Below are positions 4,072-40,382 of a DNA stretch of 64,000 bases, piece after piece. Origin of the DNA: Myxococcota bacterium (lineage in GTDB: Bacteria > Myxococcota_A > UBA796 > SXON01); assembly GCA_040386535.1 (NCBI GenBank), contig JAZKFH010000011.1, forward strand, positions 1 through 64,000, read 5' to 3'. The first letter of the stretch is position 1. The number at the start of each line of letters is the position of its first letter. The position numbers were made by a program, and so were the translations under genes. The notes beneath the pieces are model-generated. The model did no database searches. It was given only the letters and a program-made list of their open reading frames with translations, and was not told where the DNA came from.

Positions 4072-4082
4072 CCTGGACTGAC

Positions 4083-6235: not shown

Positions 6236-7369
<1,134 letters not shown>

Positions 7370-16666: not shown

Positions 16667-16681
16667 ACCGCCGGGCGGACG

Positions 16682-18145: not shown

Positions 18146-19008
18146 CACCCTCCCAGGAGGCGCTCCTCCCCTCCGAGGACGATGTCACGTTCTACGAGCA
18201 GCATGGCTATTACACGTCGGCGCGGATCTACGCGGACGACGAGCTGGACGACGCTGTGTACGGCAGCGAGCGGTACTACGCGGGCGAGCGGGACACCGTG
18301 TTCCCCTTGCGGGGTGGCTACCTCGATTGGCGGCCGGAGGACGGCGAGGGGCTGCGCCAGAACGACTACGTGTCCCTCCAGAACGACGAGATCCGGCGGT
18401 TGGTGGAACACCCGCTCCTGGGCGCGATCGCGGCCCGGCTGTGCCGAGAGACCGAGTCCGTCCGCCTGTTCCACGACCAGCTCGTCTACAAGCCCCCCGG
18501 CGAGCTCGAGGGGACAACCATCGTCGGGTGGCATACCGACCGCGCCTATTGGCGGACGTGTACGTCGGATCGGATGCTCACCGCGTGGATTCCGTTCCAC
18601 GCGGTCGACGCTCGTTCGGGGACCCTCACCGTGATCGACGGCAGCCACCGTTGGGAGGGCGCGGAGCGTCTCCACACCTTTCGCGACAAGGATCTCGCGG
18701 GCCTCGCGTCCCGGATGTTCCCCGCGGGTGCGGGCGTGCGGGAGGTGCCGATGACGCTCGCGCGGGGCGCGGTGAGCTTCCATCATTGCCGGCTGATCCA
18801 CGGCAGCTACCCGAACCGCGGCGTTCGCCCGCGCGTCGCGCTGGCGGTCCACATGCAGGACGCCGCCAATCGTTACATTGCTCACTATGATGCCGCGGGA
18901 AATCCAATCCTGCACATCAACGACACGTTGTGCCGGAAGCGCGCGGACGGCGATCCGGACTATGCCGACAACAACATCTGCCCGGTGGTCTGGGCGAGGG
19001 GAGCCTGA
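18136..19008 (+). CDS. Fe(II)/2-oxoglutarate dioxygenase, PhyH family
   Basis: FYEQHGY, YKPP, WHTD (HxD), TAWIP, GSHRW, HGSYPN..R; the GTG start overlaps the kinase 3' end. Confidence 0.92.
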   Translation: MALTPSQEALLPSEDDVTFYEQHGYYTSARIYADDELDDAVYGSERYYAGERDTVFPLRGGYLDWRPEDGEGLRQNDYVSLQNDEIRRLVEHPLLGAIAARLCRETESVRLFHDQLVYKPPGELEGTTIVGWHTDRAYWRTCTSDRMLTAWIPFHAVDARSGTLTVIDGSHRWEGAERLHTFRDKDLAGLASRMFPAGAGVREVPMTLARGAVSFHHCRLIHGSYPNRGVRPRVALAVHMQDAANRYIAHYDAAGNPILHINDTLCRKRADGDPDYADNNICPVVWARGA

Positions 19009-19032
19009 CGGTTCCCCGCGAGGCGACGTGCC

Positions 19033-22000
19033 ATGGACAAGACGGATCCGACGTTGATCTTCGACGCCCGCCTGAAGGCGGAGCAGGCGTACTGGTTGGG
19101 GCGCCTCCGCCGGGAGCTCGAGGAGACCAACCTCCCCCTGGACTTCAAGCGCTCGAAGATCTACGCACCCAAGCAGGAGTCGCTGCCGTTCGAGATCTCC
19201 GAGGACACGCAGCGGCGCCTGGAGCGTCTCACCGGGGGCTCGCCGCTCCTGACCTACACCGCGCTGCTCGCGGCGCTCCTGGTCGCGCTCCGTCGGTACA
19301 CCGGCAATCACACCGTGGTCGTGGGCAGCCCACCCGCGCGGGTGGACGGGCAGGCCGACCGGGCGAACGTGCTCCCGATCGTGGCGGACCTCGACGACAG
19401 CACCTCGTTCCGCGAGCTGCTCCCCCGGCTTCGTGACACACTGTCCGCGGTGTACGCGCACCAGAACTATCCATTCGGTCGTCTGCTGGAAGACCTCGGG
19501 ATCGTGGCCCCGCCCAGCCGCTGCCCACTTTTTGACGTGGTCGCGTCATCCGCGGCGCTCCACGGTCCCCTGCCGCCCCTGAAGAACGACATCTCCTTCG
19601 TCTTCGTCGGCGCGCCCGGGGCCCTGGCGCTGCAGATCGTGTTCAACGCCCGGGTGCTCCACGCCGACACGGTGGCGGCCTTCGGCCGCAGCGTGTTGTG
19701 CCTCCTCGACGAGATGCTCCGGCGCCCCGCCGATCCGCTGGGCGCGCTCCCGGCGCTCTCCGGCGATCAGGCGCGGGTCCTGGTCGAGGGGTGGAACGGC
19801 ACCCCTGGCGAGACCCGCGATCCCCGGCCGCTCGGCGGCGTCCCGGGGCTGTTCGAGGCCCAGGTCGATCGCACGCCCGATGCCCTGGCCGCGGAACAGG
19901 ACGGGCGCTTCCTCACCTACCGCGTACTGGAGCAGCGCGCGAACCAGCTCGCGCACCACCTTCGTGCCGCCGGTGCGGGGCCCGACGTCCCGATCGGGAT
20001 CGCGATCGCCCCGTCCCTGGACCTCCTCGTGGGCGTGCTCGGGATCCTCAAGGCCGGTGCGGCCTACGTCCCGCTCGACCTCGCCCTGCCGGCGGACCGC
20101 CGCCGGATCGTCGCCGAGGAAGCGGGGGTTCGCATCGTCCTCGTCGCTGGCGAAGGCCCCTCGCCGCTCCCGCCGGGCGTCGCGCGGCTGATCGATCTCG
20201 ACGCCGACCGCGAGGTCATCGCGGCTACCCCCGCCACCCGTATTGCGAGCCCCGATCCGGAGGATCTCGCCTACATCCTGTTCACCTCGGGATCGACGGG
20301 CCGCCCCAAGGGGGTGTGTATGCCACACCGGGCCCTCACCAACCTGCTGGATTGGCAGATCCGGCAATCCACGTGTTCGGAGGGGTCGCGTACGTTGCTG
20401 CGCACCTCCCTCGGTTTTGATGTCAGCTTCCAGGAGATCTTCGCCACCTGGTGCGCCGGGGGCACGCTCGTCGTGGCGTCCGAGGCGATCCGGAGCGACC
20501 CGTGGGGGCTGCCGGCGTTCCTGGAGGCGAAGCAGATCAACCGGGTGTTCCTTCCGTTCATCGGCTTGCAGCAGCTGGCGAAGGGGATGTGCGCCCAGCA
20601 GCGGTTCCCCACGACGCTGCGCGAGGTGATCACCGCGGGCGAGCCGCTGCGCATCACGAGCGCGATCCTCGAGGTGTTCCGACAGCTGGAGGGCTGCTCG
20701 CTGGTGAACCAATATGGTCCCACCGAGACACACGTCGTGACCGCGAATGTACTTGATGGCCCCGCGATCCGTTGGCCGACGCTGCCGTCCATCGGGCGCC
20801 CCATCGCGAACACCCAGGTGTACGTGTTGGATGCGTGGCTGCAGCCGGTGCCCATGGGCGCCGTCGGGGAGCTGTGTGTCGGGGGCGTGGCGGTGGCCCG
20901 GGGGTACGCCGGGCGGCCGGAGCTCACCGAGCGCGCCTTCCCGGTCAATCCCTTCGTTCCGGGGCCAACGGCAGCCGCGGCCCGGCTCTACCGGACCGGG
21001 GATCTCGCGCGTCATCGCCGGAACGGCGAGATCGAGCTCCTCGGGCGTGCCGATCGCCAGGTGAAGATCCGCGGTCACCGGGTGGAGCTGGGCGAGGTCG
21101 AGGCGGCGCTGTGCGTGCATCCCGAGGTCGGCGAGGCGGTGGCGATGGGGACCACCGGTGACGACGGAGACACGCGTCTGGTGGCCTGGGTGGTGCCAGA
21201 GCACGGCCACAGGCCGTCGAGCGCGGCGCTCCGGGCGTACCTCGCCGAGAGGCTCCCCCCCGCGATGATCCCCGCGGCGTTCGTGCGGGTGGACACGCTC
21301 CCGTTGACCTCGACCGGCAAGATCGATCGTGCGGCCCTGCCCGCCCCGGACTGGGCACACCCGGAGATCGAGGATCCGTTCGTCGCGCCCCGGACGCCGG
21401 TCGAGCAGCTCCTCGCCGAGGTCTGGCGGGCGGTCCTGGGGGTCGAGCGCGTGGGGATCGCGGAGAATTTCCTGGAGCTCGGCGGAGACTCGATCCTCGC
21501 GACCCAGGTGGTGGCCCGGGCCCGCGCGGAGGGCGTCGGGATCAGCCTGCGGGACATCTTCCAGCACCAGACGGTCGCGGCGCTGGCCCTGGTCGCAAGC
21601 ACGGCCCGGACCCGTGACGTGACGGCCAGCGGGCCGGCGCCCCTCAGCGCGATCCAACGTTGGTTGCTGGATCGGGAGCTTCCGAACCCGAGCCACTGGA
21701 ACATGAGCGTGTTGTTGCAGACCCGGTTCGCGCACGCGCCCGGGCTCCTCGCGGGCGCCATGCGCGCGGTCGTCGCCCACCACGACGCGCTTCGCCTCCA
21801 GCTCGTCCAGGACGGCGCCGGTTGGCGCCAGGCGGCGGGGCTCTCGGCGCACCAGGCGCTCGCGGTGGTCCACCATGACCTGTCGGCCCTCCCGGCCCAC
21901 GAGCAACCGGGCGTGGTCACGGAGCTCGCCGCCGCCGCACAACGCATGCTCGATCTCCACACCGGGCCGATGGTCGTGATGGCTACGTTCGATCTCGGGG

Positions 22001-23028
22001 CGGAGAGGCCGGGCCGGGTGCTGTTCGCCGCCCACCACCTCGTGATGGACGGGGTGTCGCTCCGGTTCCTCCTGGCCGACGTGGAGACGGCCGCGCGACA
22101 GCTGGCGGGCGGCGAACCGGTGGCGCTGCCGCCGCCGACCGCCCCGTTCCTCCACTGGGCTCGGCTCACCAACGAGCTCGCGCAGTCCCCCCGCCTGCAC
22201 GCGGAGCTCGAGTATTGGGAGCGACGCCCGGCGACCCCTCCCGCGCGCCTCCCGCTGGACCGTCCAGACGGCCCGAACACCGAGGAATCCACACGCACCG
22301 TCGAGCGGTCCCTGGGCGCCGCCGAGACCCGCGCCGTGTTGCACGGCACCCCCGAGGGCATCCGGGACGTCGTCCTCGGCGCGCTGGTGGTCGCCCTGTC
22401 ACGCTTCACCGGATCCCGCGCCGTGCTCGTCGACGTCGAGGGGCACGGCCGCGAAGAGCTGGCCGAGGCGGGAGAGTTCGCGCGCACGGTGGGCTGGTTC
22501 ACGTCGCTCTTTCCGGTCTGCTTCGACATCGGGGACGCCCCCGCGCCGGGCGAGGTGTTGCGCGCCGTTCACGCACGACTCCGCGCGGTTCCCGGCAACG
22601 GCGTCGGCTACGGGCTCCTGCGCCACCTCGCCGGTCCGCAGATCGCGGCACGCCTCGCGGCGTTGCCCGCCGCCGAGGTCAGCTTCAACTATCTCGGGCA
22701 ATTCGACGCGCTGCTCGCCGAGAGCGCGCTGTTCGCCCTGGCTCCGGAGTCCCCCGGCCCGCAGGTCGATCCCCGTGGAGCGCGGACCCACGCGCTCTAC
22801 GTGGAGGGGCGGATCGTGCACGGCCAGCTGCTCCTCTCGTTCCGCTACAGCGCAGCGCTGCACGACGCCGCGACGATGGAGCAGGTGGCGGACCACTGCA
22901 TGGCCGCGCTCGGGGCCATGCGCGCCGATCCGGTCCCCGCGGCGCGCGCGCACACCGCGCGAGTGAGCGCCGCGGATCTGCAGGCCGTCCTCGCGGCGGT
23001 GAGGACCGAGGACCCGAGTGAGCGCTGA
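19033..23028 (+). CDS. NRPS: partial C (interface-like)-A(Pro-like)-T-E
   Basis: N-terminal half C domain lacking HHxxxDG; A code read by eye DVQFIAQVVK; T with GGDSI; E motifs HHLVMDGVS, EGHGRE, RTVGWFT, FNYLGQFD. Confidence 0.95.
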   Translation: MDKTDPTLIFDARLKAEQAYWLGRLRRELEETNLPLDFKRSKIYAPKQESLPFEISEDTQRRLERLTGGSPLLTYTALLAALLVALRRYTGNHTVVVGSPPARVDGQADRANVLPIVADLDDSTSFRELLPRLRDTLSAVYAHQNYPFGRLLEDLGIVAPPSRCPLFDVVASSAALHGPLPPLKNDISFVFVGAPGALALQIVFNARVLHADTVAAFGRSVLCLLDEMLRRPADPLGALPALSGDQARVLVEGWNGTPGETRDPRPLGGVPGLFEAQVDRTPDALAAEQDGRFLTYRVLEQRANQLAHHLRAAGAGPDVPIGIAIAPSLDLLVGVLGILKAGAAYVPLDLALPADRRRIVAEEAGVRIVLVAGEGPSPLPPGVARLIDLDADREVIAATPATRIASPDPEDLAYILFTSGSTGRPKGVCMPHRALTNLLDWQIRQSTCSEGSRTLLRTSLGFDVSFQEIFATWCAGGTLVVASEAIRSDPWGLPAFLEAKQINRVFLPFIGLQQLAKGMCAQQRFPTTLREVITAGEPLRITSAILEVFRQLEGCSLVNQYGPTETHVVTANVLDGPAIRWPTLPSIGRPIANTQVYVLDAWLQPVPMGAVGELCVGGVAVARGYAGRPELTERAFPVNPFVPGPTAAAARLYRTGDLARHRRNGEIELLGRADRQVKIRGHRVELGEVEAALCVHPEVGEAVAMGTTGDDGDTRLVAWVVPEHGHRPSSAALRAYLAERLPPAMIPAAFVRVDTLPLTSTGKIDRAALPAPDWAHPEIEDPFVAPRTPVEQLLAEVWRAVLGVERVGIAENFLELGGDSILATQVVARARAEGVGISLRDIFQHQTVAALALVASTARTRDVTASGPAPLSAIQRWLLDRELPNPSHWNMSVLLQTRFAHAPGLLAGAMRAVVAHHDALRLQLVQDGAGWRQAAGLSAHQALAVVHHDLSALPAHEQPGVVTELAAAAQRMLDLHTGPMVVMATFDLGAERPGRVLFAAHHLVMDGVSLRFLLADVETAARQLAGGEPVALPPPTAPFLHWARLTNELAQSPRLHAELEYWERRPATPPARLPLDRPDGPNTEESTRTVERSLGAAETRAVLHGTPEGIRDVVLGALVVALSRFTGSRAVLVDVEGHGREELAEAGEFARTVGWFTSLFPVCFDIGDAPAPGEVLRAVHARLRAVPGNGVGYGLLRHLAGPQIAARLAALPAAEVSFNYLGQFDALLAESALFALAPESPGPQVDPRGARTHALYVEGRIVHGQLLLSFRYSAALHDAATMEQVADHCMAALGAMRADPVPAARAHTARVSAADLQAVLAAVRTEDPSER

Positions 23029-26000
23029 GAACATCGAGGATCTCCGGGAGCTGTCGGCGATCCAACACGGCACGCTGTTCCACAGCGTGTGGGGGCGGGA
23101 GGTGTATGTCGAGCAGATGGTCTGCACGCTGCGCGGGCCCTTGGATGTGCCGGCCTTCGAGCGGGCCTGGCAGGGGGTGGTCGACGCCCACGACGTGCTC
23201 CGCACCTCGTTCGTCTGGCAGGGCGTGGAGCGCCCGCTCCAGGTGGTGCAACGCCGGGTTGCCCTCGTGCTGGAGCAGCGCGACTGGACCCCCTCCCCAC
23301 CGGGGACTCAAGCCGCGTTGTTGTCCGCCTGGCTCGAAACGGATCGCGCGCGGGGCTTCGATCTCGCCCGGGCCCCGCTCCTGCGCCTCGCCCTGCTGCG
23401 CACCGGCGCCGACGTCCACCACCTCGTCTGGACGCACCACCACATCCTGCTCGATGGGTGGTCGGTCGGGCTCGTGCTGGAGGAGGTGCTCGCGCGGTAC
23501 GAAGGGGAGCGCGGCGGCCCCCCGGCCGAGCTGCGGCGCGGCGTGCCGTTCTCGGCCTACCTCGATTGGATGGAGAGGCGCGGGTCGGGGCCTGCCGAGG
23601 CCTGGTGGCGCCGCACCCTGGCCGGCGCCGGCGAAGCGATCCCGCTCGGAGGGGACGCGGGTTGCCGACCGTTCGGGAGCGGGCCCGTCTCCGAGCAGCG
23701 CCTCACGCTCACCCCGGACGAGACCGCGGCTCTCCACGCCGCCGCGCGCCGACACCGGGTGACACTCGGGACCCTCGCGCACGGCGCCTGGGCGATGCTC
23801 CTGGCGCGGTACAGCGGGGAGGACGAGTGTGTCTTCGGCACGGTCACGTCCACCCGGCCGCCAGACCTGCCGGGCTCGGCCTCGGTGGTCGGGCCGTGCT
23901 TCAACACGCTCCCGGTCCGGATTGCCATGCCCCCGGGGTTGCCGGTGGGGAGTTGGCTCCAGGGGCTGCAGACGGCGCTCGTCGAGCTCCGGCAGCACGA
24001 CCACGTCGCGCTCGCGGACATCCACGCGTGGAGCGGGATTCCCCGCGGCGCCCGGCTGTTCGAGAGCCTCCTGGCCTTCGAGAACTACCCGCTGGCCACC
24101 ACCCTCGGGGGAACGGGATCCAGCCTCGCGTTCACCGATGTCCGCTGGATTGGGAGCACCAACTACCCGCTCGCGGCGATGGTCGTGCCGCGGGCCGAGA
24201 CCACGTTGTGCATCCAACACGACGTGTCCCGGTACTCCGCCGAGACCGCGCGCGCGATGTTGGGCCACTACCGTGCGCTCCTCCTCGGAATGACCCAGCC
24301 GGGCAACATTCCCCTGCGCGCGCTGACGCCTCTCTCCGCCGAGGAGCGGGAGCTTCTCCTGGTGGGCTGGAACCCCACCCGCACGGAGGCTCCGGCGGTG
24401 GGATCGCTGCACCGCCTCTTCGCCGCGCAGGTGGCAAGGACCCCAGCGGCCGTGGCCGTCACCCACTGCGGCGCCGCGCTCTCCTACGGAGAGCTCGACC
24501 GACGTGCCAACCGACTGGCATGGCGGCTCCGCGCCCGCGGGGTGGGGCCGGAGGTCCGCGTCGGCCTGCTCGTGGCGCGCGGCCTCGACCTGCTCGTGGG
24601 CGTATTGGCCATCGCGGAGGCGGGAGGCGCCTTCGTGCCGCTCGATCCGGACCATCCGCCCGAGCGCGTCGGGTGGATCGTTCGGGATGCCCAGCTGGCC
24701 CTCGTCGTGACACAAGAGAATCTGTCCGGACGGCTGCCACCCGAGGTGGATCGAATCGGGTTCGACCCGGACGACACTGCCTCGCCGGGCCCCCTCCCGA
24801 GTGGGGTCGGGCCCGATCACCTGGCGTACGTCCTGTACACCTCGGGCTCGACCGGGGTTCCGAAGGGGGTGATGATCCCCCATCGGGGCCTGGTGAACTA
24901 CCTGGCCTGGGCGGCGCGGGCGTACGCGGTCGCCGAGGGCGTCGGGGCGCCGGTCCACACCTCCGTCGCGTTCGACCTCACGTTCACCGCGCTGCTGGTA
25001 CCGCTGTGCGCGGGACGACGGGTCGATCTGCTCGTCGAGGAGCGTGGCGTGGGCGCCCTCGCCGCGGTTCTGCGGGCGCCCTCCGACTACAGCCTCGTCA
25101 AGCTCACCCCGAGCCACGTCGAGGTCCTCGCGGGCCACGCACTGACGCCACCTTCCGCGCCGGCAACGCGCGCCTTTGTCGTGGGTGGGGAGAGCCTGCG
25201 CCCGGAGCACGTCCGCGCGTTGCGCGCCGCCGCGCCCGGCGCCGTCGTGTACAACGAATACGGACCGACCGAAGCCGTGGTGGGCTGCAGTGTGCACACG
25301 GTGACCGACCTCGTGGACGAGGGGGGCCCGCTGCCGATCGGGCGCCCGATCGACAACACCCGCCTCTACATCCTCGATCGCGACTTTGCCCCCGTGCCCG
25401 TCGGGGTGATCGGGGAGCTGTTCATCGGGGGAGCCGGCCTGGCGCGGGGCTACCTCGGGCAGCCCGGACGCACGGCGGAACGGTTCGTTCCGGATCCGTT
25501 CGGGGACCAGACCGGCGCACGCCTCTACCGGACCGGGGACCGCGCGCGCCGTCGCGTCGACGGGGACATCGAGTTCATCGGCCGCGTGGACGAGCAGGTC
25601 AAGGTGCGCGGCCATCGCGTCGAGCCCGCCGAGATCGAGGCCGCGCTGACACGCCACCCGGCGGTCGCCCAGGCGGTGGTCGTCACGCGCTCCCGGCTCG
25701 AGGGGGCGCATGAGCTGGTGGCCTGTTGGGTGGCGGCAGGGCCGGACGCGCCCGGCCCAGGAGAGCTCCGGAAGTACCTCCTCGACACGCTCCCCGAGCC
25801 GATGGTCCCCGCGCGGTTCGTGCGCGTGGAGCACCTTCCGCTCACGCCGAACGGCAAGGTCGATCGCGCCGCGCTCGCGGCGGCCGGCGGGGAGGAAGTG
25901 GCCGCCGCGAGCGCCCCCTTCGTCGCCCCGCGGGGCCCGACCGAGGAGAGCCTCGCCCGGATCTGGGCCGAGGTGCTGGGGGTCGAGCGGATCGGCCGTG

Positions 26001-29000
26001 ACGATGACTTCTTCGACCTCGGCGGGCACTCCTTGTCGGCGCTCCGGGCCGTGTCACGGATCCGCGGCGCGCTCCACGCGGGGATGGCGCTCTCGTCCCT
26101 GTTCACGGCGCGAACCCTCGCGGCGCTCGCCGCCGTGGTCGACGCCGAGCGGCGCGGCGCGTCCTCTCCCTTCGCGGGTGGCACGACGGACGGTCCGGTA
26201 CCGCGGCGGGCGGAACGCGGCGCCGCCCCCGCCTCCTTGGCGCAGGAGCGGCTGTGGGTGCTCGACCAGCTCCATCCGGGCGTGTACCACGTGTCCGCGG
26301 CGGCGCGGCTCGAGGGCGTGCTCGATGTGGGAGCCCTCGAGCAGGCCGTGCGGGCGGTGGTCGCTCGGCACGACATCCTCCGCGCGCGCTTCGTCGTCTC
26401 GGACGGCGCGTTGGTGCAGGTGAGCGGTCCGGCATCCGGGGCCGCGGCGTTCGTGCTCGAGCGGATCCCGCTCGGCGGCCAGACGCCCGACGCGCGGCGG
26501 GAGGAGGCGCGCGACGCGCTCACGCGGGCCCTGTGCCGCCCCTTCGACCTCGGAACGGGCCCGCTGCTCCGGGCCGGCATCGTGACCGTCGACATACACG
26601 AGCACGAGCTGCTCCTCGCGATGCATCACCTCGTCTGCGACGGGTGGTCCCGCGATGTGTTGGTTCACGAGCTCGCGCTCGCCTACACCGCCGTGCTCCG
26701 CGCCGACCCCGTGCCGCCGCCCGCGCTGCCGGTGCAGTACGCCGACTACGCCGCCTGGCAGCGCGCGCGTGTGGACGCGACGGAGGCCGCGCAGCTCGCC
26801 TGGTGGGTGGCGCAGCTCGAAGGGATCCCCCCGCTGGAGCTGCCGATCGCGCGCCCCCGCCAGCCCGAGCGGCGCTTTCGCGGCGCCCAGCACCCGATCG
26901 TGCTGTCGACGGAGAGCGTTCGTGCCCTCTCCACGTTCTGTCGGGCGCACCGGGAGACCCCCGTCACCGTGCTCCTGTCGGCGTTCGTCGCGCTGCTGCA
27001 CCGCTACACCGGGCAGGACGACATCGGCGTCGGCACCTCCGTCGCGGACCGCGGTCGCCCCGAGCTCGACGCGCTCATCGGCCCCTTCCTCAATACGATC
27101 GTCGTGCGCGGTCGCCCCCGCGCGTCGCTGCCCTTCCGCGCGCTGGCCCAGGCGATCGGCGTGACCCTTCGCGACGCCCAGGCCCACGCGGACATCCCGT
27201 TCGGGCGGGTGGTGCGCGGGCTCGGCGCCGGCCAGGATCCTCGGCGGAACCCCGTCTTCCAGGCCCTGTTCGACCTCCAGGACGCGCCCGACGAGCGGAT
27301 CGAGCTGCCCGGCGTGCGGCTGTTCCCCCTGCGCCTCGACACCGGCACCGCGAAGCTCGACCTGGCCTTGCACCTCTGGGCGTCGCGCGAGGGTTTCCAC
27401 GGGTGGATCGAGTACGACACCGACCTGTTCGAGGGCGTGGCCATCGCGCGCATGGCCTCACACTTCGACCACCTCCTCCGATCCATCGGGGGAGGCGAAG
27501 CCCCGATCGGCGCGCTGCCCATCCTGCCGCCGGCGGAGCGCCGGCAGGTGCTCGTCACCTGGAATGGCCCGAGCGTGGCGTACGCGGGCCCGGAAGCGCT
27601 CCACCGGCTCGTGGAGGCCCAGGTGGTGCGGTCGCCAGACGCGATCGCCGTCGTGTTCGAAGGCGATCGAGTGACGTACCGCGAGCTGGACCGACGCGCG
27701 GATCGGCTGGCTCGGCGGCTCGTGAACGCCGGCGTGGGGCCGGAGTCGATCGTGGGGGTCCACGTCGACCGTTCGCTGGCCCTGGTCGTGGCCCTGCTCG
27801 CCATCCTCAAGGCGGGTGGTGCCTGGCTGCCGCTGGATCCCGACCTGCCGGCGGAGAGGCGAGCGTCCATGACCGCCGACGCCGCCCCTACGATCGTGTT
27901 GCTGGCGGACGGCGCGGACGCGGCCCCGTTCGAGACCGCCACGTTGTACGTGAGCGCCGCCGGGGACTCCGCCACGGAGGGGAGCTCGCCCCTCGTCGCC
28001 ACCTCCCCGACGAACCTAGCCTACGTGATCTACACCTCCGGCTCCACCGGGAAGCCGAAGGGCGTGCAGATCCAGCACGACGGCATCTGCAATCGGCTCG
28101 CGTGGATGCAGGCGGAGTATGGGCTCACTCCCGCGGATCGGGTGCTGCACAAGACCCCCATCGGCTTCGACGTGTCCGTCTGGGAGCTGTTCTGGCCGCT
28201 GATCACGGGCGCGCGGCTGGTCCTGGCCCGGCCCGGGGGGCAGCGGGACCCGCGGTATCTCGCCCAGCTCATCCGCGACGAGGGCGTCACGACCGTCCAC
28301 TTCGTGCCCTCCCTGCTGGCGGCGTTCGTGGAGGAGCCCGCCCTCTCGGACTGCGTGTCCCTCGCGCGGGTGTTCTGCAGCGGCGAGGCGCTCTCGCCCG
28401 ACGTTGCGGCGCGCTTCGCCGCGCGCTCTGAGGCGGCGCTCCACAACCTGTACGGGCCGACCGAGGCCTCCGTCGACGTCACGGCGTGGACCTGGCGGCC
28501 GGGCTCAACCCGCGTGCCCATCGGGTCTCCCATCGCCAACATCCGGATCTACATCCTGGATCCGCGCCTGGAGCCGGTCCCGATCGGCGTGCCGGGGGAG
28601 CTGTACATCGGCGGGATCGGCGTGGCCCGCGGGTACCTCGGGCGGCCCGGGTTGACGGCCGATGCCTTCGTCCCCGACCCGTTCGCGCCGTCGGTCGGCG
28701 GTCGGCTCTACCGCACCGGAGACCGCGCACGCCACCTGCAGGACGGCGCCATCGAGTTCCTCGGGCGCAACGACGACCAGGTCAAGATCCGCGGGGTGCG
28801 CATCGAGCCCGCCGAGATCGAGATGGAGCTCCGCCGCCACGCGGCGGTGGGCGCGTGCGCGGTCGTCGCCCGGCCGCACCCCGCGGGAGGGCTCCGCCTC
28901 ACGGCCTACGTCGTTCCGCGCGCGGGCACGATGCCCCCGGCGGACGTGCTGCGTCGTCACCTCGCCGCGCGGCTGCCCGAAGCGATGATCCCGACCGGGT

Positions 29001-32000
29001 TCGTCTCGGTCGCCACCCTCCCGCGCCAGCCCTCCGGCAAGGTCGACCGCCGCGCCCTCCTCGCGCTCCCCGCCGAGCAGGCGTTCGTCGCGCGCGCCGC
29101 TGTGGTGACGCCGCCGCGAAGCGCGTCGGAGCACGGCCTCGCGCGGATCTGGTGCGCGGTCCTCGGTCTGGACCACGTTGGGGTGCACGACAACTTCTTC
29201 GCCCTGGGAGGGGATTCGATCCGTGGCATCGCCGTCGTGGCGCAGGCGCGGGCCGCGGGGTTCGACGTGACGCTGCGCCGCTTGTTCAACGAGCCGACGA
29301 TCGCGGCGTTGGCGAGCTTCGCGCCGCTCCCCGACACCGCGCCGCTCCCCGACACCGCGCCGCTCCTGGACGGCGCGGAATTCCCGGCTCCAACCGCGCC
29401 GTTCGCCCTCCTCCGCCCGGCCGACCGCGCGCGTGTCCCCGCCGGCATCGAGGACGCCTATCCGCTCACCGCGCTGCAGCTCGGCATGGTGTTCCACGCG
29501 TCGCTGGCGTCCGGCGCGCGCGTCTACCGCAACGTCGACTCGGTCCACCTGCGGGCCCCGTGGGCGCCGGAGCTCCTCCGCGGCGCCGTGCAGAGGCTGG
29601 TCGATCGGCACGGGATCCTGCGCACCTCCTTCGAGGTCCACACCTTCGAGGACGCCGTGCAGCTCGTACACGAGCGGGTCGAGGCGCCCCTGGTCATCGA
29701 GGATCTGCGCGGGCTCACGGCGGAGCAGCAAGAGGCCCGGCTGGACCGATGGTTGCGCGAGCAGGAAGCGCGGGCGTTCGCGCTCGGGGTGCCGCCGCTG
29801 TTCGGCGCGTACGTCCACCGGCGGACGGACGAGACGTTCCAGTTCACGCTGCCCCACCACCACGCCATCCTGGACGGCTGGAGCGTGAGCGCGCTCTGCG
29901 CCGAGCTGATGACGGACTACCTCTCCGCCGTCCGCGGGGAGGCGGCCCCCGCGCCGCCGATCGGTGCGACGTTCCGGGACTACGTCGCCCTCGAGCGCGC
30001 TGCGGTCGACTCCGCGGAGCACCAGGACTACTGGCACACGCTCCTGGCCGATGCGCCCGCGTGTGTCCTGCCCGCCGCCCCGGCCGACCGTGACGAGGGT
30101 TCCGGCGTCGCGCCCGAGCATCGCGAGCACCGGGTGGGCCTGGGGGCCCCGCTTGCCAGCGCCCTTGCAGGCGTGGCGGCAGCCCAGGGCGTGCCGCTCA
30201 AGAGTGTGCTCCTCGCCGCGCACCTCCACGTGGTCCGCCTCCTGACCCACCAGTCCGACGTCGTGACGGGCCTCATCACCGACGGTCGCCCCGAGCTGCC
30301 GGGTGCGGAGCGTGTTCTGGGCCTGTTCCTCAACACGGCGCCGTTCCGCCTGCGCCTCGGCGGGGGAACGTGGGCGGAGCTGGTGAACGCGGTGTTCCAC
30401 GCGGAGCGGGAGGCGCTCCCGTACCGGCGCTTCCCGTTGGCCCTAATGGGGAGCGGGCGGCGGCCCTTGTTCGACACGGCCTTCAACTACACCCACTTTC
30501 ACGTGCTCGCGCCGCTGTCGGGCCTCGACGGGCTCGAGGTCCTCGAGCGGCGCTCGTTCGCGCTCCAGACCTTCCGCTTGATGGCGAACTTCGATCTGGA
30601 CGCCAAGGAGCACACGCTGACGCTCGTCCTCGGCTACGACGCGTGCGCGCTCTCCGACGTGCAGGTCGAGGACGTCGCGGCCTGCTACGCGCGTACGCTG
30701 GCGGAGATCGCGGGGGATCCGCACGGGCAATACGCCGCGACGGGCACCGGAGCGGTCGGCGACGAGGCGCCGGGAACCGCCTCGTCGCGTGCCCCCGCCG
30801 CGTCGGGGCATCGGCAGCCCACTGCCGCGCCGCCCCGCACCCCGATCGAGCGCGTCCTCGCAGGGATCTGGTCGGACCTGCTCCACGTCGATCCGATCGG
30901 GATCGACGAGGACTTCTTCGAGCTCGGAGGCGACTCCCTCGTCGCGATCCGCGTGGTGTCCCGGCTGCGGGATCGGGCCCGGATCGAGCTGTCCCCGAGC
31001 GCGTTGTTCGAGGCGCCCACCATCGCCGCGCTGGCGGCGATGGTGGAGGCAGGCCGCCCCGGAACGGCCTCGCGGTCGATCTCCGTGGTCCCTCACGACG
31101 GGCCGACTGGGCTCTCCCTGGGGCAGCAACCGATGTTCCTGCTGGACACCGCGCTTAGGGGGCTGCCGCTCTTCCACGCGCCGGTGCGGCTCCACGTCGC
31201 CGGGCTGCTGGACATCGCGGCCCTACGACGGAGCTTCGCGCACGTGGCGGAGCGGCACGGGGTGTTGCGCACGACGTTCACGATGCTCGACGGCCGTCCC
31301 GTGCAGCGCGTGCTCCCCGCGATCGAGTTGGAGCTCCCGTGCGTGGATCTGCGCGCCCTCACGGAGCGCGCGCGCGCCGTGGAGGCGGAGCGGCTGGCCT
31401 GGGCCGACGCGGCTCGGCCCTTCGATTTGGCGGGGGGCCCGCCGATCCGCGCGAGCCTGCTCCAGCTGGGGGACCAGGAGCACGTGCTGCTCCTCACGCT
31501 CCACCACCTCGTCAGTGACGGTTGGTCGATGGGCGTGCTCGCGGGCGAGGTGGCCGCGGCGTACGCGGCGTTCGTGTCGGGCGCGCCACCGGCCCTCCCG
31601 CGCCTCCCGCTGCAGTATCGGGACTACGTCGCCTGGCAGGCGGAGCAACTGAAGAACGGCGGGTTCGACGCCGCGCTCGCCTGGTGGATGGACGAGCTGG
31701 CCGCGCCGCTGCCGCCGCTCGCCCTCGGGGGAGCTGTCCCTTCGCCGCGAATGGGCGGCTTCCGACCCGTGGCGATCCCGGTCCAGGTGGGGAGGGAGAC
31801 GACCGAGGGGCTCACCCGCGTGGGTCGGCAGGAGGGCGCCAGCCTGTTCATGGTGCTGCTGGCCGCGTTCGACGTTGTCCTCCATGCCGTCGCCGGCGCA
31901 CGCGACATCCGCGTGGGTACGCTCGTCGCGAATCGGACGTCCTCCGAAACCGAAGGCCTGATCGGGCTTTTCGTCAACACCCTCCTCCTCCGCGTGGATC

Positions 32001-32551
32001 TGTCGGGGGATCCGTCGTTTCGGGAGATCCTCCGCGCCGTCCGCGTGCGCACCCTGGCCGCGTACGATCGGCAGGACGTGCCCTTCGAGGCCGTGGTGCA
32101 CGCGCTCGAGGCCCGCGCTTCCGCGAGCGGTGGCGGCCTCGATCGCGCGACGCTCTTCCAGGCCATGTTCATCCTTCAGAGCGCGCCCATCCCCACGCTC
32201 GACCTGCCCGGCCTCGTCGTGGAGAGTTGGGAGCGCGACGCGCCGCCGCTGATGACATCCTTCGACGTGAAGCTGGTCCTGGAGGAGGTCGCCGGTGGGC
32301 TCGTCGGTTCGCTCGTCTATCGGGAGGCGTTCGTGGAGGAGACCGCCATGACGACGTTGCTGGGCCTGTTCGAGGTCCTGTTGGAAGACGTATCGGGAGG
32401 ATCGGACGAGCAACTGTCGACGTGGCGCCGGTACGCCCGGGCGGTGAATACGACAGAGTTTGCGTCCCCCCTTGACGACGGCCAGCCTGCGGCGGATCCT
32501 CCTCGGGCCCCTGTTTCCAGCGGGCCAAAGAACGTAGGAGGTACCTCATGA
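23018..32551 (+). CDS. NRPS: C-A(Asn)-T-C-A(Ser)-T-C-T-C, no thioesterase
   Basis: C motifs HHHILLDG, HHLVCDG, HHHAILDG, HHLVSDG; A codes DLTKVGEVGK and DVWHFSLVDK; T motifs GGHSL, GGDSI, GGDSL. Confidence 0.95.
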   Translation: MSAENIEDLRELSAIQHGTLFHSVWGREVYVEQMVCTLRGPLDVPAFERAWQGVVDAHDVLRTSFVWQGVERPLQVVQRRVALVLEQRDWTPSPPGTQAALLSAWLETDRARGFDLARAPLLRLALLRTGADVHHLVWTHHHILLDGWSVGLVLEEVLARYEGERGGPPAELRRGVPFSAYLDWMERRGSGPAEAWWRRTLAGAGEAIPLGGDAGCRPFGSGPVSEQRLTLTPDETAALHAAARRHRVTLGTLAHGAWAMLLARYSGEDECVFGTVTSTRPPDLPGSASVVGPCFNTLPVRIAMPPGLPVGSWLQGLQTALVELRQHDHVALADIHAWSGIPRGARLFESLLAFENYPLATTLGGTGSSLAFTDVRWIGSTNYPLAAMVVPRAETTLCIQHDVSRYSAETARAMLGHYRALLLGMTQPGNIPLRALTPLSAEERELLLVGWNPTRTEAPAVGSLHRLFAAQVARTPAAVAVTHCGAALSYGELDRRANRLAWRLRARGVGPEVRVGLLVARGLDLLVGVLAIAEAGGAFVPLDPDHPPERVGWIVRDAQLALVVTQENLSGRLPPEVDRIGFDPDDTASPGPLPSGVGPDHLAYVLYTSGSTGVPKGVMIPHRGLVNYLAWAARAYAVAEGVGAPVHTSVAFDLTFTALLVPLCAGRRVDLLVEERGVGALAAVLRAPSDYSLVKLTPSHVEVLAGHALTPPSAPATRAFVVGGESLRPEHVRALRAAAPGAVVYNEYGPTEAVVGCSVHTVTDLVDEGGPLPIGRPIDNTRLYILDRDFAPVPVGVIGELFIGGAGLARGYLGQPGRTAERFVPDPFGDQTGARLYRTGDRARRRVDGDIEFIGRVDEQVKVRGHRVEPAEIEAALTRHPAVAQAVVVTRSRLEGAHELVACWVAAGPDAPGPGELRKYLLDTLPEPMVPARFVRVEHLPLTPNGKVDRAALAAAGGEEVAAASAPFVAPRGPTEESLARIWAEVLGVERIGRDDDFFDLGGHSLSALRAVSRIRGALHAGMALSSLFTARTLAALAAVVDAERRGASSPFAGGTTDGPVPRRAERGAAPASLAQERLWVLDQLHPGVYHVSAAARLEGVLDVGALEQAVRAVVARHDILRARFVVSDGALVQVSGPASGAAAFVLERIPLGGQTPDARREEARDALTRALCRPFDLGTGPLLRAGIVTVDIHEHELLLAMHHLVCDGWSRDVLVHELALAYTAVLRADPVPPPALPVQYADYAAWQRARVDATEAAQLAWWVAQLEGIPPLELPIARPRQPERRFRGAQHPIVLSTESVRALSTFCRAHRETPVTVLLSAFVALLHRYTGQDDIGVGTSVADRGRPELDALIGPFLNTIVVRGRPRASLPFRALAQAIGVTLRDAQAHADIPFGRVVRGLGAGQDPRRNPVFQALFDLQDAPDERIELPGVRLFPLRLDTGTAKLDLALHLWASREGFHGWIEYDTDLFEGVAIARMASHFDHLLRSIGGGEAPIGALPILPPAERRQVLVTWNGPSVAYAGPEALHRLVEAQVVRSPDAIAVVFEGDRVTYRELDRRADRLARRLVNAGVGPESIVGVHVDRSLALVVALLAILKAGGAWLPLDPDLPAERRASMTADAAPTIVLLADGADAAPFETATLYVSAAGDSATEGSSPLVATSPTNLAYVIYTSGSTGKPKGVQIQHDGICNRLAWMQAEYGLTPADRVLHKTPIGFDVSVWELFWPLITGARLVLARPGGQRDPRYLAQLIRDEGVTTVHFVPSLLAAFVEEPALSDCVSLARVFCSGEALSPDVAARFAARSEAALHNLYGPTEASVDVTAWTWRPGSTRVPIGSPIANIRIYILDPRLEPVPIGVPGELYIGGIGVARGYLGRPGLTADAFVPDPFAPSVGGRLYRTGDRARHLQDGAIEFLGRNDDQVKIRGVRIEPAEIEMELRRHAAVGACAVVARPHPAGGLRLTAYVVPRAGTMPPADVLRRHLAARLPEAMIPTGFVSVATLPRQPSGKVDRRALLALPAEQAFVARAAVVTPPRSASEHGLARIWCAVLGLDHVGVHDNFFALGGDSIRGIAVVAQARAAGFDVTLRRLFNEPTIAALASFAPLPDTAPLPDTAPLLDGAEFPAPTAPFALLRPADRARVPAGIEDAYPLTALQLGMVFHASLASGARVYRNVDSVHLRAPWAPELLRGAVQRLVDRHGILRTSFEVHTFEDAVQLVHERVEAPLVIEDLRGLTAEQQEARLDRWLREQEARAFALGVPPLFGAYVHRRTDETFQFTLPHHHAILDGWSVSALCAELMTDYLSAVRGEAAPAPPIGATFRDYVALERAAVDSAEHQDYWHTLLADAPACVLPAAPADRDEGSGVAPEHREHRVGLGAPLASALAGVAAAQGVPLKSVLLAAHLHVVRLLTHQSDVVTGLITDGRPELPGAERVLGLFLNTAPFRLRLGGGTWAELVNAVFHAEREALPYRRFPLALMGSGRRPLFDTAFNYTHFHVLAPLSGLDGLEVLERRSFALQTFRLMANFDLDAKEHTLTLVLGYDACALSDVQVEDVAACYARTLAEIAGDPHGQYAATGTGAVGDEAPGTASSRAPAASGHRQPTAAPPRTPIERVLAGIWSDLLHVDPIGIDEDFFELGGDSLVAIRVVSRLRDRARIELSPSALFEAPTIAALAAMVEAGRPGTASRSISVVPHDGPTGLSLGQQPMFLLDTALRGLPLFHAPVRLHVAGLLDIAALRRSFAHVAERHGVLRTTFTMLDGRPVQRVLPAIELELPCVDLRALTERARAVEAERLAWADAARPFDLAGGPPIRASLLQLGDQEHVLLLTLHHLVSDGWSMGVLAGEVAAAYAAFVSGAPPALPRLPLQYRDYVAWQAEQLKNGGFDAALAWWMDELAAPLPPLALGGAVPSPRMGGFRPVAIPVQVGRETTEGLTRVGRQEGASLFMVLLAAFDVVLHAVAGARDIRVGTLVANRTSSETEGLIGLFVNTLLLRVDLSGDPSFREILRAVRVRTLAAYDRQDVPFEAVVHALEARASASGGGLDRATLFQAMFILQSAPIPTLDLPGLVVESWERDAPPLMTSFDVKLVLEEVAGGLVGSLVYREAFVEETAMTTLLGLFEVLLEDVSGGSDEQLSTWRRYARAVNTTEFASPLDDGQPAADPPRAPVSSGPKNVGGTS

Positions 32552-32727
32552 GCAACTTGGACGTGCGCCTGGATCCCGCCAACTTCACGAAGCTGAATCC
32601 GCGCGAGCTGGACGAGCTGAACGCGACCGTGAACGCCGAGCTTCTCAAGAATCCGGCGCTGCAGAAGTCGCTTCGTGGCAAGGTGGACGCCTTCTCCGCG
32701 CACCTGAAGAAGACCAAGGAGGGCTGA
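32548..32727 (+). CDS. 59-aa small protein of unknown function (below the ORF-track cutoff)
   Basis: AGGAGG RBS at 32536-32541, ATGA overlap with the NRPS stop, GC3-rich codons: MSNLDVRLDPANFTKLNPRELDELNATVNAELLKNPALQKSLRGKVDAFSAHLKKTKEG. Confidence 0.8.
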   Translation: MSNLDVRLDPANFTKLNPRELDELNATVNAELLKNPALQKSLRGKVDAFSAHLKKTKEG

Positions 32728-32757: not shown

Positions 32758-34545
32758 ATGTCGCGAGACCCCGATGACTCGCGCCTGGCTCCACCGGGGC
32801 CGTTTCACGAGTCGTGCTACGTGGCGGCCCGGGACGGTACCCGGCTCGCCGTCTTCCTTTTTCGTCCGGCCGAATCCGGTCGCCCGGTCGCCCGGCCACT
32901 GCCCGTGGTCTGGACGCACAACCGGTACCACGCTCAGGGGGCGGCGCCCGAGCGGGTCCGGGCCTGGGAAGAGCACCTTCCCTGGCTGAACCCCGCCGCG
33001 TCGCAGCCCCCGGTCTCGTCGGTGTCGCTGGACGACACCCCGTGGTTGGGGGAGCTGGTGGACAACGGCTACGTCGTCGCGATCGTGGACGCGCGGGGGA
33101 GCGGCGCGTCGTTCGGGACGCGCTCCGGCCCGCTGTCACCGGACGAGGCGCGGGACGCCTACGACCTGACCGAGTGGTTCGCGTCACAGCCGTGGTGCGA
33201 CGGCGCCGTCGGCATGTTCGGGCGCTCGTACATGGGCACGAACCAGATGTTCGCCGCGGCCGCTCCGTCGCCGCACCTGCGCGCCGTCTTCCCCGAGATG
33301 GCCCTGTTCGACCTCTACACCTTCGTGTACTCCGGCGGCGTGTTCCGCCATGACTTCGCCCGGAGCTGGTCCCGGGACGTGGCGCGTCGTGACCGGGAGG
33401 ATCCCGCGGTGCGCGTCGGCGGAGATCCGTCCGGGGCGTTGCTGGCCGAGGCGCGCGCGGTGCACGCGTTCAACCGGGACACCTACGGGATGTTCGCGAA
33501 CCTGCCGCACCGTGACTCGACCGATCTCGAGTCCGGGGAACGCTCGTACGACCTGCGGAACCCCGCGTACGACGGCCACGCGTTGCGAACGCCGAAGATC
33601 CCGGTGTACCTCCTCGCGGGTTGGTACGACCCCTTCGTCCGGGACGCCTTCGCCTGGTTCGTGAACACGCCCGGCGTCCGACGGCTGGTGGTGGGGCCCT
33701 GGGCTCACACCGGGAACCTGGGCTTCGACCTCGCCGCCGAGCACCTGCGTTGGTACGACCGCTGGCTCAAGGGCGCGCCCGATCCCATCGAGGACGAAGC
33801 CCCGCTTCATTTCTATGTCATCGGCGCCCCGGAGGGCGAGCGTTGGCGCGCCGCGTGGTCGTGGCCCCTCCCCGAGGCGCGGCCCCTCGACCTCTACCTG
33901 TGTGCAGGCCCGACGGGGACCGTTCGTTCGTGCAACGACGGGCTGTTGGGCTCCGCCCCGCCGAAAGGTGAGGCCGTGGACGAGTACCGGGTCGACTACA
34001 CGGCCACCTCCGGCACGGCCAGCCGCTGGACCAACGCCTACGGAGGCCCCTTCGGCTACCGGGATCTGCTGTCCAACGACGAAAAGGGCCTCACGTACAC
34101 GACCGGTGCGCTCGAGGCGGATCTCAACGTCGTCGGACATCCCGTCGCGCACGTGTGGGTGTCCTCGTCGGCCGAGGACCTCGACCTCTTCGCCTTTCTC
34201 GAGGAAGTGGGCCCCGACGGCGCCGTCCGCTACGCCTCGGAGGGGGTGCTGCGTGCGTCCCACCGCGCGCTGGCGACGCCCCCCTTCCTCCTCCCCGGCG
34301 GTGTCCCGTTCCATCGGAGCGGGGCGGGGGATGTCGCGCCCCTGCCGCGCCACCCGGTGGAGCTCGTGTTCGACCTGCACCCGATCGCGCGCCGCTTCCC
34401 GCGGGGGCACCGGGTTCGCCTGACACTGACCTGCGCGGACCGTGACAACGCCCTCACCCCCGAGTCTCCGGAACCTCCCCTGGTTCGGATCCATCGGGGC
34501 GAGCAGACGCCGACGCGCCTGGTCCTGCCGGTGGTGCCGGGCTGA
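32758..34545 (+). CDS. CocE/NonD family serine hydrolase (peptidase S15-like)
   Basis: RDGTRLA, DARGSGASFG, GRSYMG nucleophile, GWYD, GPWAH, C-terminal PepX-like domain; GGAGG RBS. Confidence 0.93.
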   Translation: MSRDPDDSRLAPPGPFHESCYVAARDGTRLAVFLFRPAESGRPVARPLPVVWTHNRYHAQGAAPERVRAWEEHLPWLNPAASQPPVSSVSLDDTPWLGELVDNGYVVAIVDARGSGASFGTRSGPLSPDEARDAYDLTEWFASQPWCDGAVGMFGRSYMGTNQMFAAAAPSPHLRAVFPEMALFDLYTFVYSGGVFRHDFARSWSRDVARRDREDPAVRVGGDPSGALLAEARAVHAFNRDTYGMFANLPHRDSTDLESGERSYDLRNPAYDGHALRTPKIPVYLLAGWYDPFVRDAFAWFVNTPGVRRLVVGPWAHTGNLGFDLAAEHLRWYDRWLKGAPDPIEDEAPLHFYVIGAPEGERWRAAWSWPLPEARPLDLYLCAGPTGTVRSCNDGLLGSAPPKGEAVDEYRVDYTATSGTASRWTNAYGGPFGYRDLLSNDEKGLTYTTGALEADLNVVGHPVAHVWVSSSAEDLDLFAFLEEVGPDGAVRYASEGVLRASHRALATPPFLLPGGVPFHRSGAGDVAPLPRHPVELVFDLHPIARRFPRGHRVRLTLTCADRDNALTPESPEPPLVRIHRGEQTPTRLVLPVVPG

Positions 34546-35329
34546 CGGGCGCGTCGGAAGCATACCGGCGTGCAATCCGAAACAACGCCCATCGGAGCTG
34601 GAGGGCAGCGGCGCCCTCCCGCGCGAGCTGGGGCGCACGCGCGGCCAACATCCGCGGCGTCATCCACCACTGGTTGACGGCGATGCACGTCTCCAGGTAC
34701 CGGGCGCGATGCCACCACCCGTACGGGATGAACAGGATGTCCCCTGGCTCGAGCACGGCATCAAAGTCCGGAGGGGGGCGCGGCCCCGGCTGGGCGTCCG
34801 GATAGTCCCAGGTGGCCGAGCACGAGTACCACGTCTGTCGGCACTGATCGGCGGCGGGCACGACGGACGGTGCATAGAGCTCGACCCGCTTGCGGCCGCG
34901 CACCTGCACCAGGAAATTGTGGGCGAAATCGCAGTGTAGCTGCGAAAGCCACCCCGGCGGCCCGATCCAGTAGTTCGTGTGGGAGAGCGCGCGGATCGCG
35001 CCGGTCGGAGGGAAGCGGGTGTGCTCCTTCAACGCGGGGATGTGCCTTCCCAGGTCGACCGTACCGAGGAAGCCGGCATCCAGCGCGTCCCCGTGCCCCA
35101 GTTGCTCGAGAAACGCGGCGAGCGTGGTGTCACGCGTGGCGAAGCCGTCCGAAACGCTCATGCCACCGAGGGAGACCGTGACGGGCAACGCGCCGTGTGT
35201 GCCAGCCAACCAATCCAGGGACCAGAGGGAGGCCGACGGCCAGTCCTTGGCGCCGCCCTCCAGGACGAAGGGGCGTCCACGTTTCGTTTGCACCATCGGG
35301 TTCGAAGCTCCTGCGAGGGACGTGCGCAT
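34454..35329 (-). CDS. JmjC/cupin-like (Cupin_8) 2OG oxygenase; start may be ATG 35296
   Basis: WIGPPG, LHCD (HxD), NFLVQVRGRKRV, LEPGDILFIPYGWWH. Confidence 0.88.
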   Translation of the reverse strand: MRTSLAGASNPMVQTKRGRPFVLEGGAKDWPSASLWSLDWLAGTHGALPVTVSLGGMSVSDGFATRDTTLAAFLEQLGHGDALDAGFLGTVDLGRHIPALKEHTRFPPTGAIRALSHTNYWIGPPGWLSQLHCDFAHNFLVQVRGRKRVELYAPSVVPAADQCRQTWYSCSATWDYPDAQPGPRPPPDFDAVLEPGDILFIPYGWWHRARYLETCIAVNQWWMTPRMLAARAPQLAREGAAALQLRWALFRIARRYASDAPVSPAPPAGPGASASARPDGSEPGEVPETRG

Positions 35330-35392
35330 GAAGGCATGCTCATGACCCTGTGCCGACAGGCATGATAATCGAGCGAGACGACGGGAGACTCG

Positions 35393-35599
35393 ATGCCGGA
35401 CGCGACCTACGCCGTGGTCATCAACCACGAGGAGCAGTACTCGGTCTGGGCCGCCGACCGGGAGCCTCCCCCCGGATGGCGCGTCGTCGGCGTGACGGGG
35501 ACGAAGGACGAGTGTCTCGCCCACATCGAACGGGTGTGGACCGACATGCGGCCGGCGAGCCTTCGCGGGGCGGCGTCGGGGTTCAATTCGGCGGAGTGA
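35393..35599 (+). CDS. mbtH: MbtH-like protein
   Basis: [33 protein letters not shown] signature. Confidence 0.97.
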
Positions 35600-40283: not shown

Positions 40284-40382
40284 CCGCCGGACCGCCCGCG
40301 CCGCCGGACCCCGGGCGTTCGCGAGTAACTTCTGTCGCGAATGGGTCGCGACCCGGAGGCGCTCGCACGTTAGCGGGTGACG

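Follow-up and report, generated by a model that had tools for sequence, protein, structure and literature searches.

Dehydration of carrier-bound serine has been described for several condensation (C) domains of non-ribosomal peptide synthetases (NRPSs), e.g., AlbB-C2 (PMC10880069) and AzeB-C2 (bioRxiv 10.64898/2026.07.17.738954). AmbE-C2, AlbB-C2/3 and LgnD-C2 were placed in a separate dehydrating clade, and NocB M5C was placed inside the DCL domains (PMC10880069). AmbE has the order T1-CmodAA-T2-TE without an adenylation (A) domain; dehydration occurs on its carrier (T) domain T1 and is followed by transthioesterification to T2. In LgnD a donor carrier with a GGDSx motif was needed for dehydration, and LCL domains take another carrier type (PMC10880069 for both). 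Here we describe a C domain, termed C3, which is encoded in a 64,000-nucleotide stretch (the window) of a Myxococcota bacterium (assembly GCA_040386535.1, contig JAZKFH010000011.1, positions 1 to 64,000, forward strand). An earlier note, made from the sequence, had taken C3 for a DCL-like domain and raised the question of dehydration or NocB-type beta-lactam chemistry. By its sequence C3 belongs to a known dehydrating family, here in an uncommon terminus without A or thioesterase (TE) domain, and with a rare third His.

Family membership of C3

The synthetase and the elements of its C-terminal part are as follows:

23018..32551, + strand, NRPS of 3177 residues, DCL-A(Asn-type)-T-LCL-A(Ser)-T-CmodAA-T-LCL (open reading frame and domain searches)
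29123..29332, + strand, T2, donor carrier of the Ser module, GGDSI, of the type serving E or CmodAA domains (motif)
29432..30727, + strand, C3, condensation domain of the dehydrating CmodAA type (trees, structure matches, motif)
29852-29878, + strand, PHHHAILDG of C3
30200-30223, + strand, KSVLLAAH of C3
30728..30841, + strand, linker of 38 residues at the usual place of an A domain (the same in the 96%-identical homologue P0004)
30842..31057, + strand, T3, carrier without A domain, GGDSL (motif)
31103..32437, + strand, C4, terminal condensation domain of the LCL clade, HHLVSDG intact, predicted release step (tree, motif)

What the earlier note had read from the letters was found in place: the carrier of the Ser module with GGDSI at 29207 (Ser codon at 29216), no epimerization (E) domain between T2 and C3 in the domain search, and a following C domain which opens with EDAYPLTALQLGMVFH (EDAYPL at 29450, D at 29453) and contains PHHHAILDGWS with the HHH at 29855. 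The A domain upstream of T2 has the code DVWHFSLVDK (from alignment), one letter from DVWHLSLVDK, which is listed as Ser/Dha-activating (PMC12283262); from this code the donor module of C3 is predicted to load Ser.

The designation as DCL-like did not hold, since trees, structure matches and motif place C3 in the CmodAA family. Among solved structures the best matches were McyA (8JBR, E 8e-108) and AmbE-CmodAA (7R9X, 7.9e-56), followed by McyB (2.4e-38), PvdL (6e-32), TycB (1.3e-29) and SrfA-C (about 1e-28); NocB C5 was not among these matches in the PDB. With an AlphaFold model of C3 (27-sequence alignment, mean pLDDT 87.8), Foldseek returned 8JBR first (TM 0.90) and 7R9X second, with SrfA-C domains close behind by TM-score, so that fold alone is a weak separator of C-domain classes. 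The motif [K/R]SVLLAAH was described as CmodAA-specific (PMC11342130) and is present exactly in C3, as KSVLLAAH. Its loose form was found in 225/280 CmodAA-like domains, 0/35 DCL and 0/597 LCL domains, a count which is partly circular because the classes were set by best BLAST match to the window's own domains. The family-conserved residues K2395, H2402, T2417, E2463, R2470 and R2471 are also kept in C3.

Both trees (FastTree, 97 rows; IQ-TREE quick tree, 58 rows) placed C3 within the CmodAA clade with a support of 100, separate from DCL (C1 of the window and post-E domains), dual E/C, LCL and E domains; the rows were a subsample of the fetched, context-labelled homologues, with no biochemically characterised enzyme among them. 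Such a phylogeny, with NocB included, had been suggested as a check; the published placement of NocB M5C inside DCL sets it apart from C3. When C3 was constrained to group with 13 DCL rows, the likelihood was 112.9 log units worse (approximately unbiased (AU) test, p 0.0003). A canonical DCL domain following E was rejected by this value and by the lack of an upstream E domain; the true DCL domain of this protein is C1. A dual E/C domain was rejected as well; the N-terminal HH[I/L]xxxxGD occurred only in P0087, P0265, P0386 and P0391 (P numbers designate homologues), and C3 lies outside the dual clade.

Two signs had pointed to NocB. The GGDSI of T2 is real and is ordinary for the family: carriers before CmodAA domains had GGDSI in 103 and GGHSL in none of 122 cases (profile-search matches), and GGHSL was present in 377/388 carriers between A and LCL domains. 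A GGDSx-type carrier without E domain is thus normal before CmodAA. The third His is no mark of NocB chemistry, since it was found in 15 of 60 DCL domains directly after E; also C1, in the DCL clade of the tree, reads HHHILLDG at 23435, as a caveat to the original claim had already stated. Among CmodAA domains HHH is rare (3/279); 222/279 have F or E there instead of the first His. One of the three, P0357, follows a Ser module, has PHHH, and is the single homologue of 279 which has P2279, C2294 and Q2517 in common with C3; it is the top sharer of rare residues by a small margin (12 vs 11). The C-T-LCL layout of C3 recurs in another of them, P0501. A grouping of C3 with P0357 and P0501 was not rejected (p 0.70); its score, 14 units higher than that of the free search, is no proof of a clade. 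A GGDSI DNA pattern, run in 151 genomes of the genus Nocardia to locate NocB, gave more than 1000 matches which could not be sorted.

The terminus without an adenylation domain

C3 runs straight into T3 and C4, where the protein ends, and both an A domain and a TE domain are absent. This is uncommon: CmodAA domains were followed by A in 121 of 128 cases, by T in 4, by the protein end in 2 and by another CmodAA in 1 (profile-search matches). An assembly artefact at this place is unsupported and, taking the following together, unlikely. P0004, a protein of a different assembly with 95.8% identity to the synthetase, shows this junction too; its T3 differs at 1/72 positions (98.6% identity) and its C4 at 11/445 (97.5%), no more than the other domains; and a single contig spans 28028-33000 without differences and with flat depth, although this run may be the window's own source. 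Other CmodAA-T units without A domain carry GGDSL, like T3 (P0434, P0437, P0456, P0488), GGHSL (P0280, P0340) or GGDSI (P0255, P0270). A Pfam search of the genome for thioesterases gave three weak matches, none on the contig of the window; the five AMP-binding domains on this contig are all inside multidomain genes, and no stand-alone A domain is present in the cluster. The body of T3 resembles LCL-donor carriers in a comparison by eye, and C4 falls in the LCL clade of the 58-row tree. A search for printed accounts of a T-CmodAA-T-LCL terminus without A domain turned up only the legonmycin translocation paper and a survey of codes; supplements of the primary C-domain-evolution and AmbE papers may list such domains.

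Very probably C3 dehydrates the T2-bound seryl thioester to dehydroalanine (Dha), because it is a member of the family of McyA, AmbE and AlbB; the dehydration part of the earlier proposal would thus stand, by this route and not by that of NocB. Given dehydration, a transfer of the unextended chain from T2 to T3 appears somewhat favoured by analogy, with T3 turning a dehydratase-type into an LCL-type donor. The AmbE precedent and the carrier types of LgnD favour dehydration, transfer and release, and the carrier dependence in LgnD would explain why T3 is there, as an adaptor. In detail, C3 would dehydrate the Ser end of a lipopeptide on T2; the chain would move unextended to T3, there being no A domain after C3; and C4 would release it onto a free or internal amine. 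The predicted product would be fatty acyl-X-(hydroxy?)-D-Pro/Pip-L-Asn-Dha-NH-R, with X supplied through the histidine ammonia-lyase (HAL)-like enzyme described below, and the CocE/NonD hydrolase may trim its acyl end. We give the complete series of steps an even chance.

Several points weigh against it. D2422 of C3 stands at the position of AmbE H1632, where homologues have N or H in 147/165 and D in 2/165, although a residue of this type is contributing and not universal across the family. R2171 is found where His is kept in 147/165 homologues, and Q2517/T2518 read QT in place of the consensus TN; by these departures the activity may be altered. The codes upstream of CmodAA-clade domains were Ser/Thr in 69 classified cases, and many were Asn-like or other, so that the clade has no fixed reaction. 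The AmbE precedent is two-edged, since T2 of AmbE can receive Ala from AmbB in trans (PMC8968710). The amide-forming His and Asp of C3 are all intact, with no obvious need for them in a pure transfer, and no acceptor module is visible for C4.

In the main rival, which we consider possible and rather unlikely, dehydration by C3 would be followed by ordinary peptide-bond formation with an amino acid on T3, so that the chain gains one residue before its release by C4. T3 would receive this amino acid from another A domain, either the Asn or the Ser domain of this synthetase or, in trans, that of another module. The intact HHxxxDG of C3, the Ala placed on AmbE T2 by AmbB (PMC8968710), the reuse of a single module proposed for poly-Dha in solanimycin (PMC10204066) and P0255, in which an E domain after an A-less CmodAA-T implies a residue on that carrier, all speak for it. 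Against it, the cluster has no stand-alone A domain, and later work on methoxyvinylglycine (AMB) gave Ala-AMB and not a tripeptide (PMC10880069, PMC8968710).

Comparison with named systems supplies both likenesses and differences. McyA-C (microcystin, PDB 8JBR), AlbB-C2 (albopeptide), AzeB-C2 and Crz1-C2 (corallorazine) share with C3 the clade and the [K/R]SVLLAAH helix, as well as a GGDSI carrier holding Ser as donor and the absence of E; they are followed by an A domain and C3 is not, and C3 has the His before HH, where F or E prevails (222/279 homologues), and the Asp at the AmbE H1632 position. AmbE (methoxyvinylglycine, 7R9X), the second-best structural match, likewise has an A-less CmodAA directly before a carrier; unlike C3 it has a modified Glu as donor and release by TE instead of LCL, and the identity is 32%. 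NocB M5C, the beta-lactam synthetase of nocardicin, has HHHxxxDG, a Ser donor, a GGDSI carrier, no E and a Dha intermediate in common with C3 as predicted, but is DCL-derived and possesses its own A-T-TE. The bleomycin line has a split Ser-T-C / T-C layout. Its BlmVI-C2 and TnaC-C3 of theonellamide belong to the same family as C3 and involve Ser-derived Dha; BlmVI-C2 is without both His and TnaC-C3 has Cys after the second His (PMC11342130), whereas C3 keeps HHAILDG.

Other arrangements of CmodAA-like domains were noted. An NRPS from a metagenome-assembled genome of Coxiellaceae (L039:3002-12406) contains one A domain and, behind it, four such domains in tandem with nothing but GGDSI carriers between them, and is possibly a poly-dehydroamino-acid line. 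Stand-alone CmodAA-T(GGDSL) proteins (P0434, P0437, P0456; 524-528 residues) and stand-alone T(GGDSI)-CmodAA proteins (P0467, P0468, P0471; 529-536 residues) are sister groups (tree support 95). In P0250, P0264, P0325 and P0362 a CmodAA-like sub-clade recurs in almost all modules, behind A domains with differing codes, which suggests epimerisation and not dehydration. P0280 and P0340 each have two Asn-type modules, both of them with a CmodAA domain behind, and an A-less T at the end.

The surrounding cluster and its HAL-like enzyme

The synthetase is part of a cluster at 7544-35599, which further contains:

7544..8185, - strand, 4'-phosphopantetheinyl transferase (PPTase)
8400..13598, + strand, starter NRPS, FAAL-ACP-C-A(code DACQLALLAK)-T
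13595..15118, + strand, MIO enzyme of a distinct HAL subfamily found in NRPS/polyketide synthase (PKS) clusters
15152..16666, + strand, stand-alone C domain of the LCL type
16682..18145, + strand, APH-like phosphotransferase fold
18136..19008, + strand, Fe/2-oxoglutarate dioxygenase of the PhyH family
19033..23028, + strand, NRPS with the order half C (only the C-lobe, like an interface domain)-A(code of Pro/Pip type)-T(GGDSI)-E
32548..32727, + strand, 59-residue open reading frame overlapping the NRPS stop codon, AGGAGG upstream
32758..34545, + strand, CocE/NonD (peptidase S15) hydrolase
34454..35524, - strand, JmjC/cupin-8 oxygenase, which probably starts further downstream than listed
35393..35599, + strand, MbtH-like protein

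The A codes, read by alignment and by eye, were DACQLALLAK, DVQFIAQVVK and DLTKVGEVGK (Asn-like) besides that of the Ser module; the second we take to be Pro/Pip-like, and the first presumably resembles those of beta-tyrosine-activating A domains. The half C domain of the NRPS at 19033..23028 aligns to LCL domains over their C-terminal lobe only, and a partial C domain beside a hydroxylase is expected of an interface domain (PMC13638107). The dioxygenase is likely to act on a carrier-bound residue of the next gene. The stretch 15152-23028 resembles myxoglucamide MxgA-Ox / MxgB-I in having a C domain, a dioxygenase and then a protein which opens with a motif-less partial C before A-T; it differs in that the dioxygenase is a stand-alone PhyH protein and the predicted substrate is Pro/Pip-like.

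The G+C content at third codon positions (GC3) of the nine main cluster genes was 0.85-0.91, compared with 0.93-0.96 in four flanking genes, and no match to C3 at E<=1e-40 was obtained in 32 family relatives; both results agree with an acquisition by horizontal transfer. Apart from the near-identical strain with P0004, the searches gave no further copy of the complete cluster. The 59-residue reading frame sits right after the terminal C domain and is kept in the 96%-identical strain; family and homology searches found no family for it, and it could be a docking or acceptor peptide. The usual APH motif is HGDLxxxN; the APH-like protein reads HGDLRGAH and may serve tailoring or self-protection.

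The HAL-like protein scored 561.7 bits as histidine ammonia-lyase, above the PRK09367 cut-off, and 348.6 as tyrosine aminomutase, and its 120 best homologues were 63-99% identical. The SH and QE motifs and the Phe of GGNFH have catalytic roles in HAL. In 38 aligned members of the subfamily SH and QE were invariant, with Leu for the Phe of P. putida HAL GGNFH. The subfamily (invariant Phe-to-Leu, CQxQED) occurs in NRPS/PKS clusters of several phyla together with the DACQ-type clade of A domains: in the window (13595-15118 and 11736-13235) and at the sites G120, G220, G330, G334, G561, G1126, G1128 and L043. NRPS genes adjoined in 8/8 loci outside the window, and a first-module-type A domain was present in 6/8, the two others being on contigs of 12 and 23 kb. 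Five of these six A domains, put in a tree, formed one clade with the first-module A of the window (support 99, long branches). One member of this clade, on a Streptomyces plasmid, had no HAL in the 41 kb read, and the pairing is therefore not strict. A 298,625-base contig is listed for P0302 (DACQ-type A and CmodAA) as well as for the HAL P0143, and a JGI contig of 119,416 bases for P0357 as well as for the HAL P0146, records which are suggestive only.

Since the first module must acylate an amine, an aminomutase yielding beta-His fits better than urocanate. That the enzyme is a histidine 2,3-aminomutase supplying beta-His to the DACQ-type A domain is nevertheless a tentative and rather doubtful proposal. 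The genome holds two other HAL-like stretches (contig C33) and a urocanase (C24). In other genomes the subfamily was found in 4/401, 1/401 and 3/368 (overlapping sets) and in 2/181, with NRPS/PKS layouts different from that of the window; metagenome scans with HAL gave first no matches and then mostly ordinary HALs, and a viral scan was empty. The DACQ code was absent from the available part of PMC12283262 and from one supplement to it, and a 2022 review had seen no genome evidence for a histidine aminomutase (PMC9002059).

A recurring cassette was seen at G220:C1:4166500-4200800, G334:C1:4651000-4682000, G120:C1:5949600-5980000 and G1128:C19:92000-120000; it consists of C-A(Gly)-T-C-A(DACQ)-T, PKS, HAL-like protein and C-A-T with an inserted domain similar to luciferase-type monooxygenases. 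Frequently a probable Asp/Asn beta-hydroxylase is present as well. The Streptomyces plasmid (L156) carries a comparable set that lacks HAL. A second FAAL-NRPS at G000:C5:113000-127000 looks degenerate, its A codes lacking the conserved Asp. Elsewhere in the window, a host gene at the left edge of the cluster (6236-7369, - strand) is lipoprotein-like and has a WD40-like end as well as a long repeat of DT/DA; three genes of lower GC (about 64%; 1968-5708, + strand), one an alpha/beta hydrolase and two without Pfam match, form a separate foreign-looking island; and very large non-NRPS reading frames of 2512 and about 2190 residues (40377-47915, + strand; 57410-63973, - strand) have coding-like GC3.

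Less probable chemistries and meaning of the locus

It is improbable that C3 makes Dha only transiently and goes on to attach a nucleophile at the beta-carbon, whether by conjugate addition or by cross-linking of a side chain. Such a nucleophile could be the imidazole of a His-derived residue at the first position, a bond of the kind seen in theonellamide with its histidinoalanine bridge. The family does include such activities (side-chain conjugation by TnaC-C3 and FclJ-C2, conjugate addition by BlmVI-C2; PMC11342130), but the conjugating domains cited there have Cys or have lost His in the motif, which C3 keeps as HHHAILDG. P0357, the post-Ser homologue with PHHH, could be counted in favour by its sole possession of P2279, C2294 and Q2517 and by the record shared with P0146; yet its lead as sharer of rare residues is marginal, the 119,416-base record is circumstantial, with neither same cluster nor same function following from it, and CmodAA was found in 0/8 fetched HAL-subfamily loci (stretches read). 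A wider proposal, in our view a long shot, would make the PHHH sub-lineage of CmodAA an A-less terminus for dehydration and cross-linking: the HAL-like aminomutase would feed beta-His to the DACQ-type A domain, C3 would add its imidazole (or an amine, towards a convergent beta-lactam) to its own Dha, and C4 would release a bridged lipopeptide.

We regard it as quite improbable that the terminus is a deletion relic or belongs to an incomplete cluster, C3 having lost its A domain so that the line stalls or dehydration is lost. The C-A linker is cleanly gone, several consensus residues of C3 are changed, C4 is without a visible acceptor module and the genome is 91.6% complete; on the other side, the cluster genes are all intact and contiguous with PPTase and MbtH, P0004 conserves the layout with T3 and C4, P0501 is CmodAA(HHH)-T-LCL too, and P0434, P0437, P0456 and P0488 are CmodAA-T(GGDSL). 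Beta-lactam formation in the manner of NocB, by convergence within CmodAA (dehydration, Michael addition of a T3-held amine, closure of the four-membered ring, with the extra His), is very unlikely, since the NocB-like HHHxxxDG spacing and GGDSI donor, and the rarity of HHH within the family (3/279), are outweighed by a DCL ancestry which belongs to NocB M5C and was rejected for C3, by the frequency of HHH in plain DCL domains (15/60) and by the absence of a TE domain and of an A domain for the amine partner.

The tempting call of a beta-lactam synthetase is thereby corrected: GGDSI and HHH are no mark of NocB, and KSVLLAAH separates the cases cleanly. The T-CmodAA-T-C fragment offers a compact, single-protein test of whether a dehydrating domain without A domain leads to transfer, in-trans extension or conjugate addition, and of the effect of the third His, and the cluster is a direct test case for histidine aminomutase activity.

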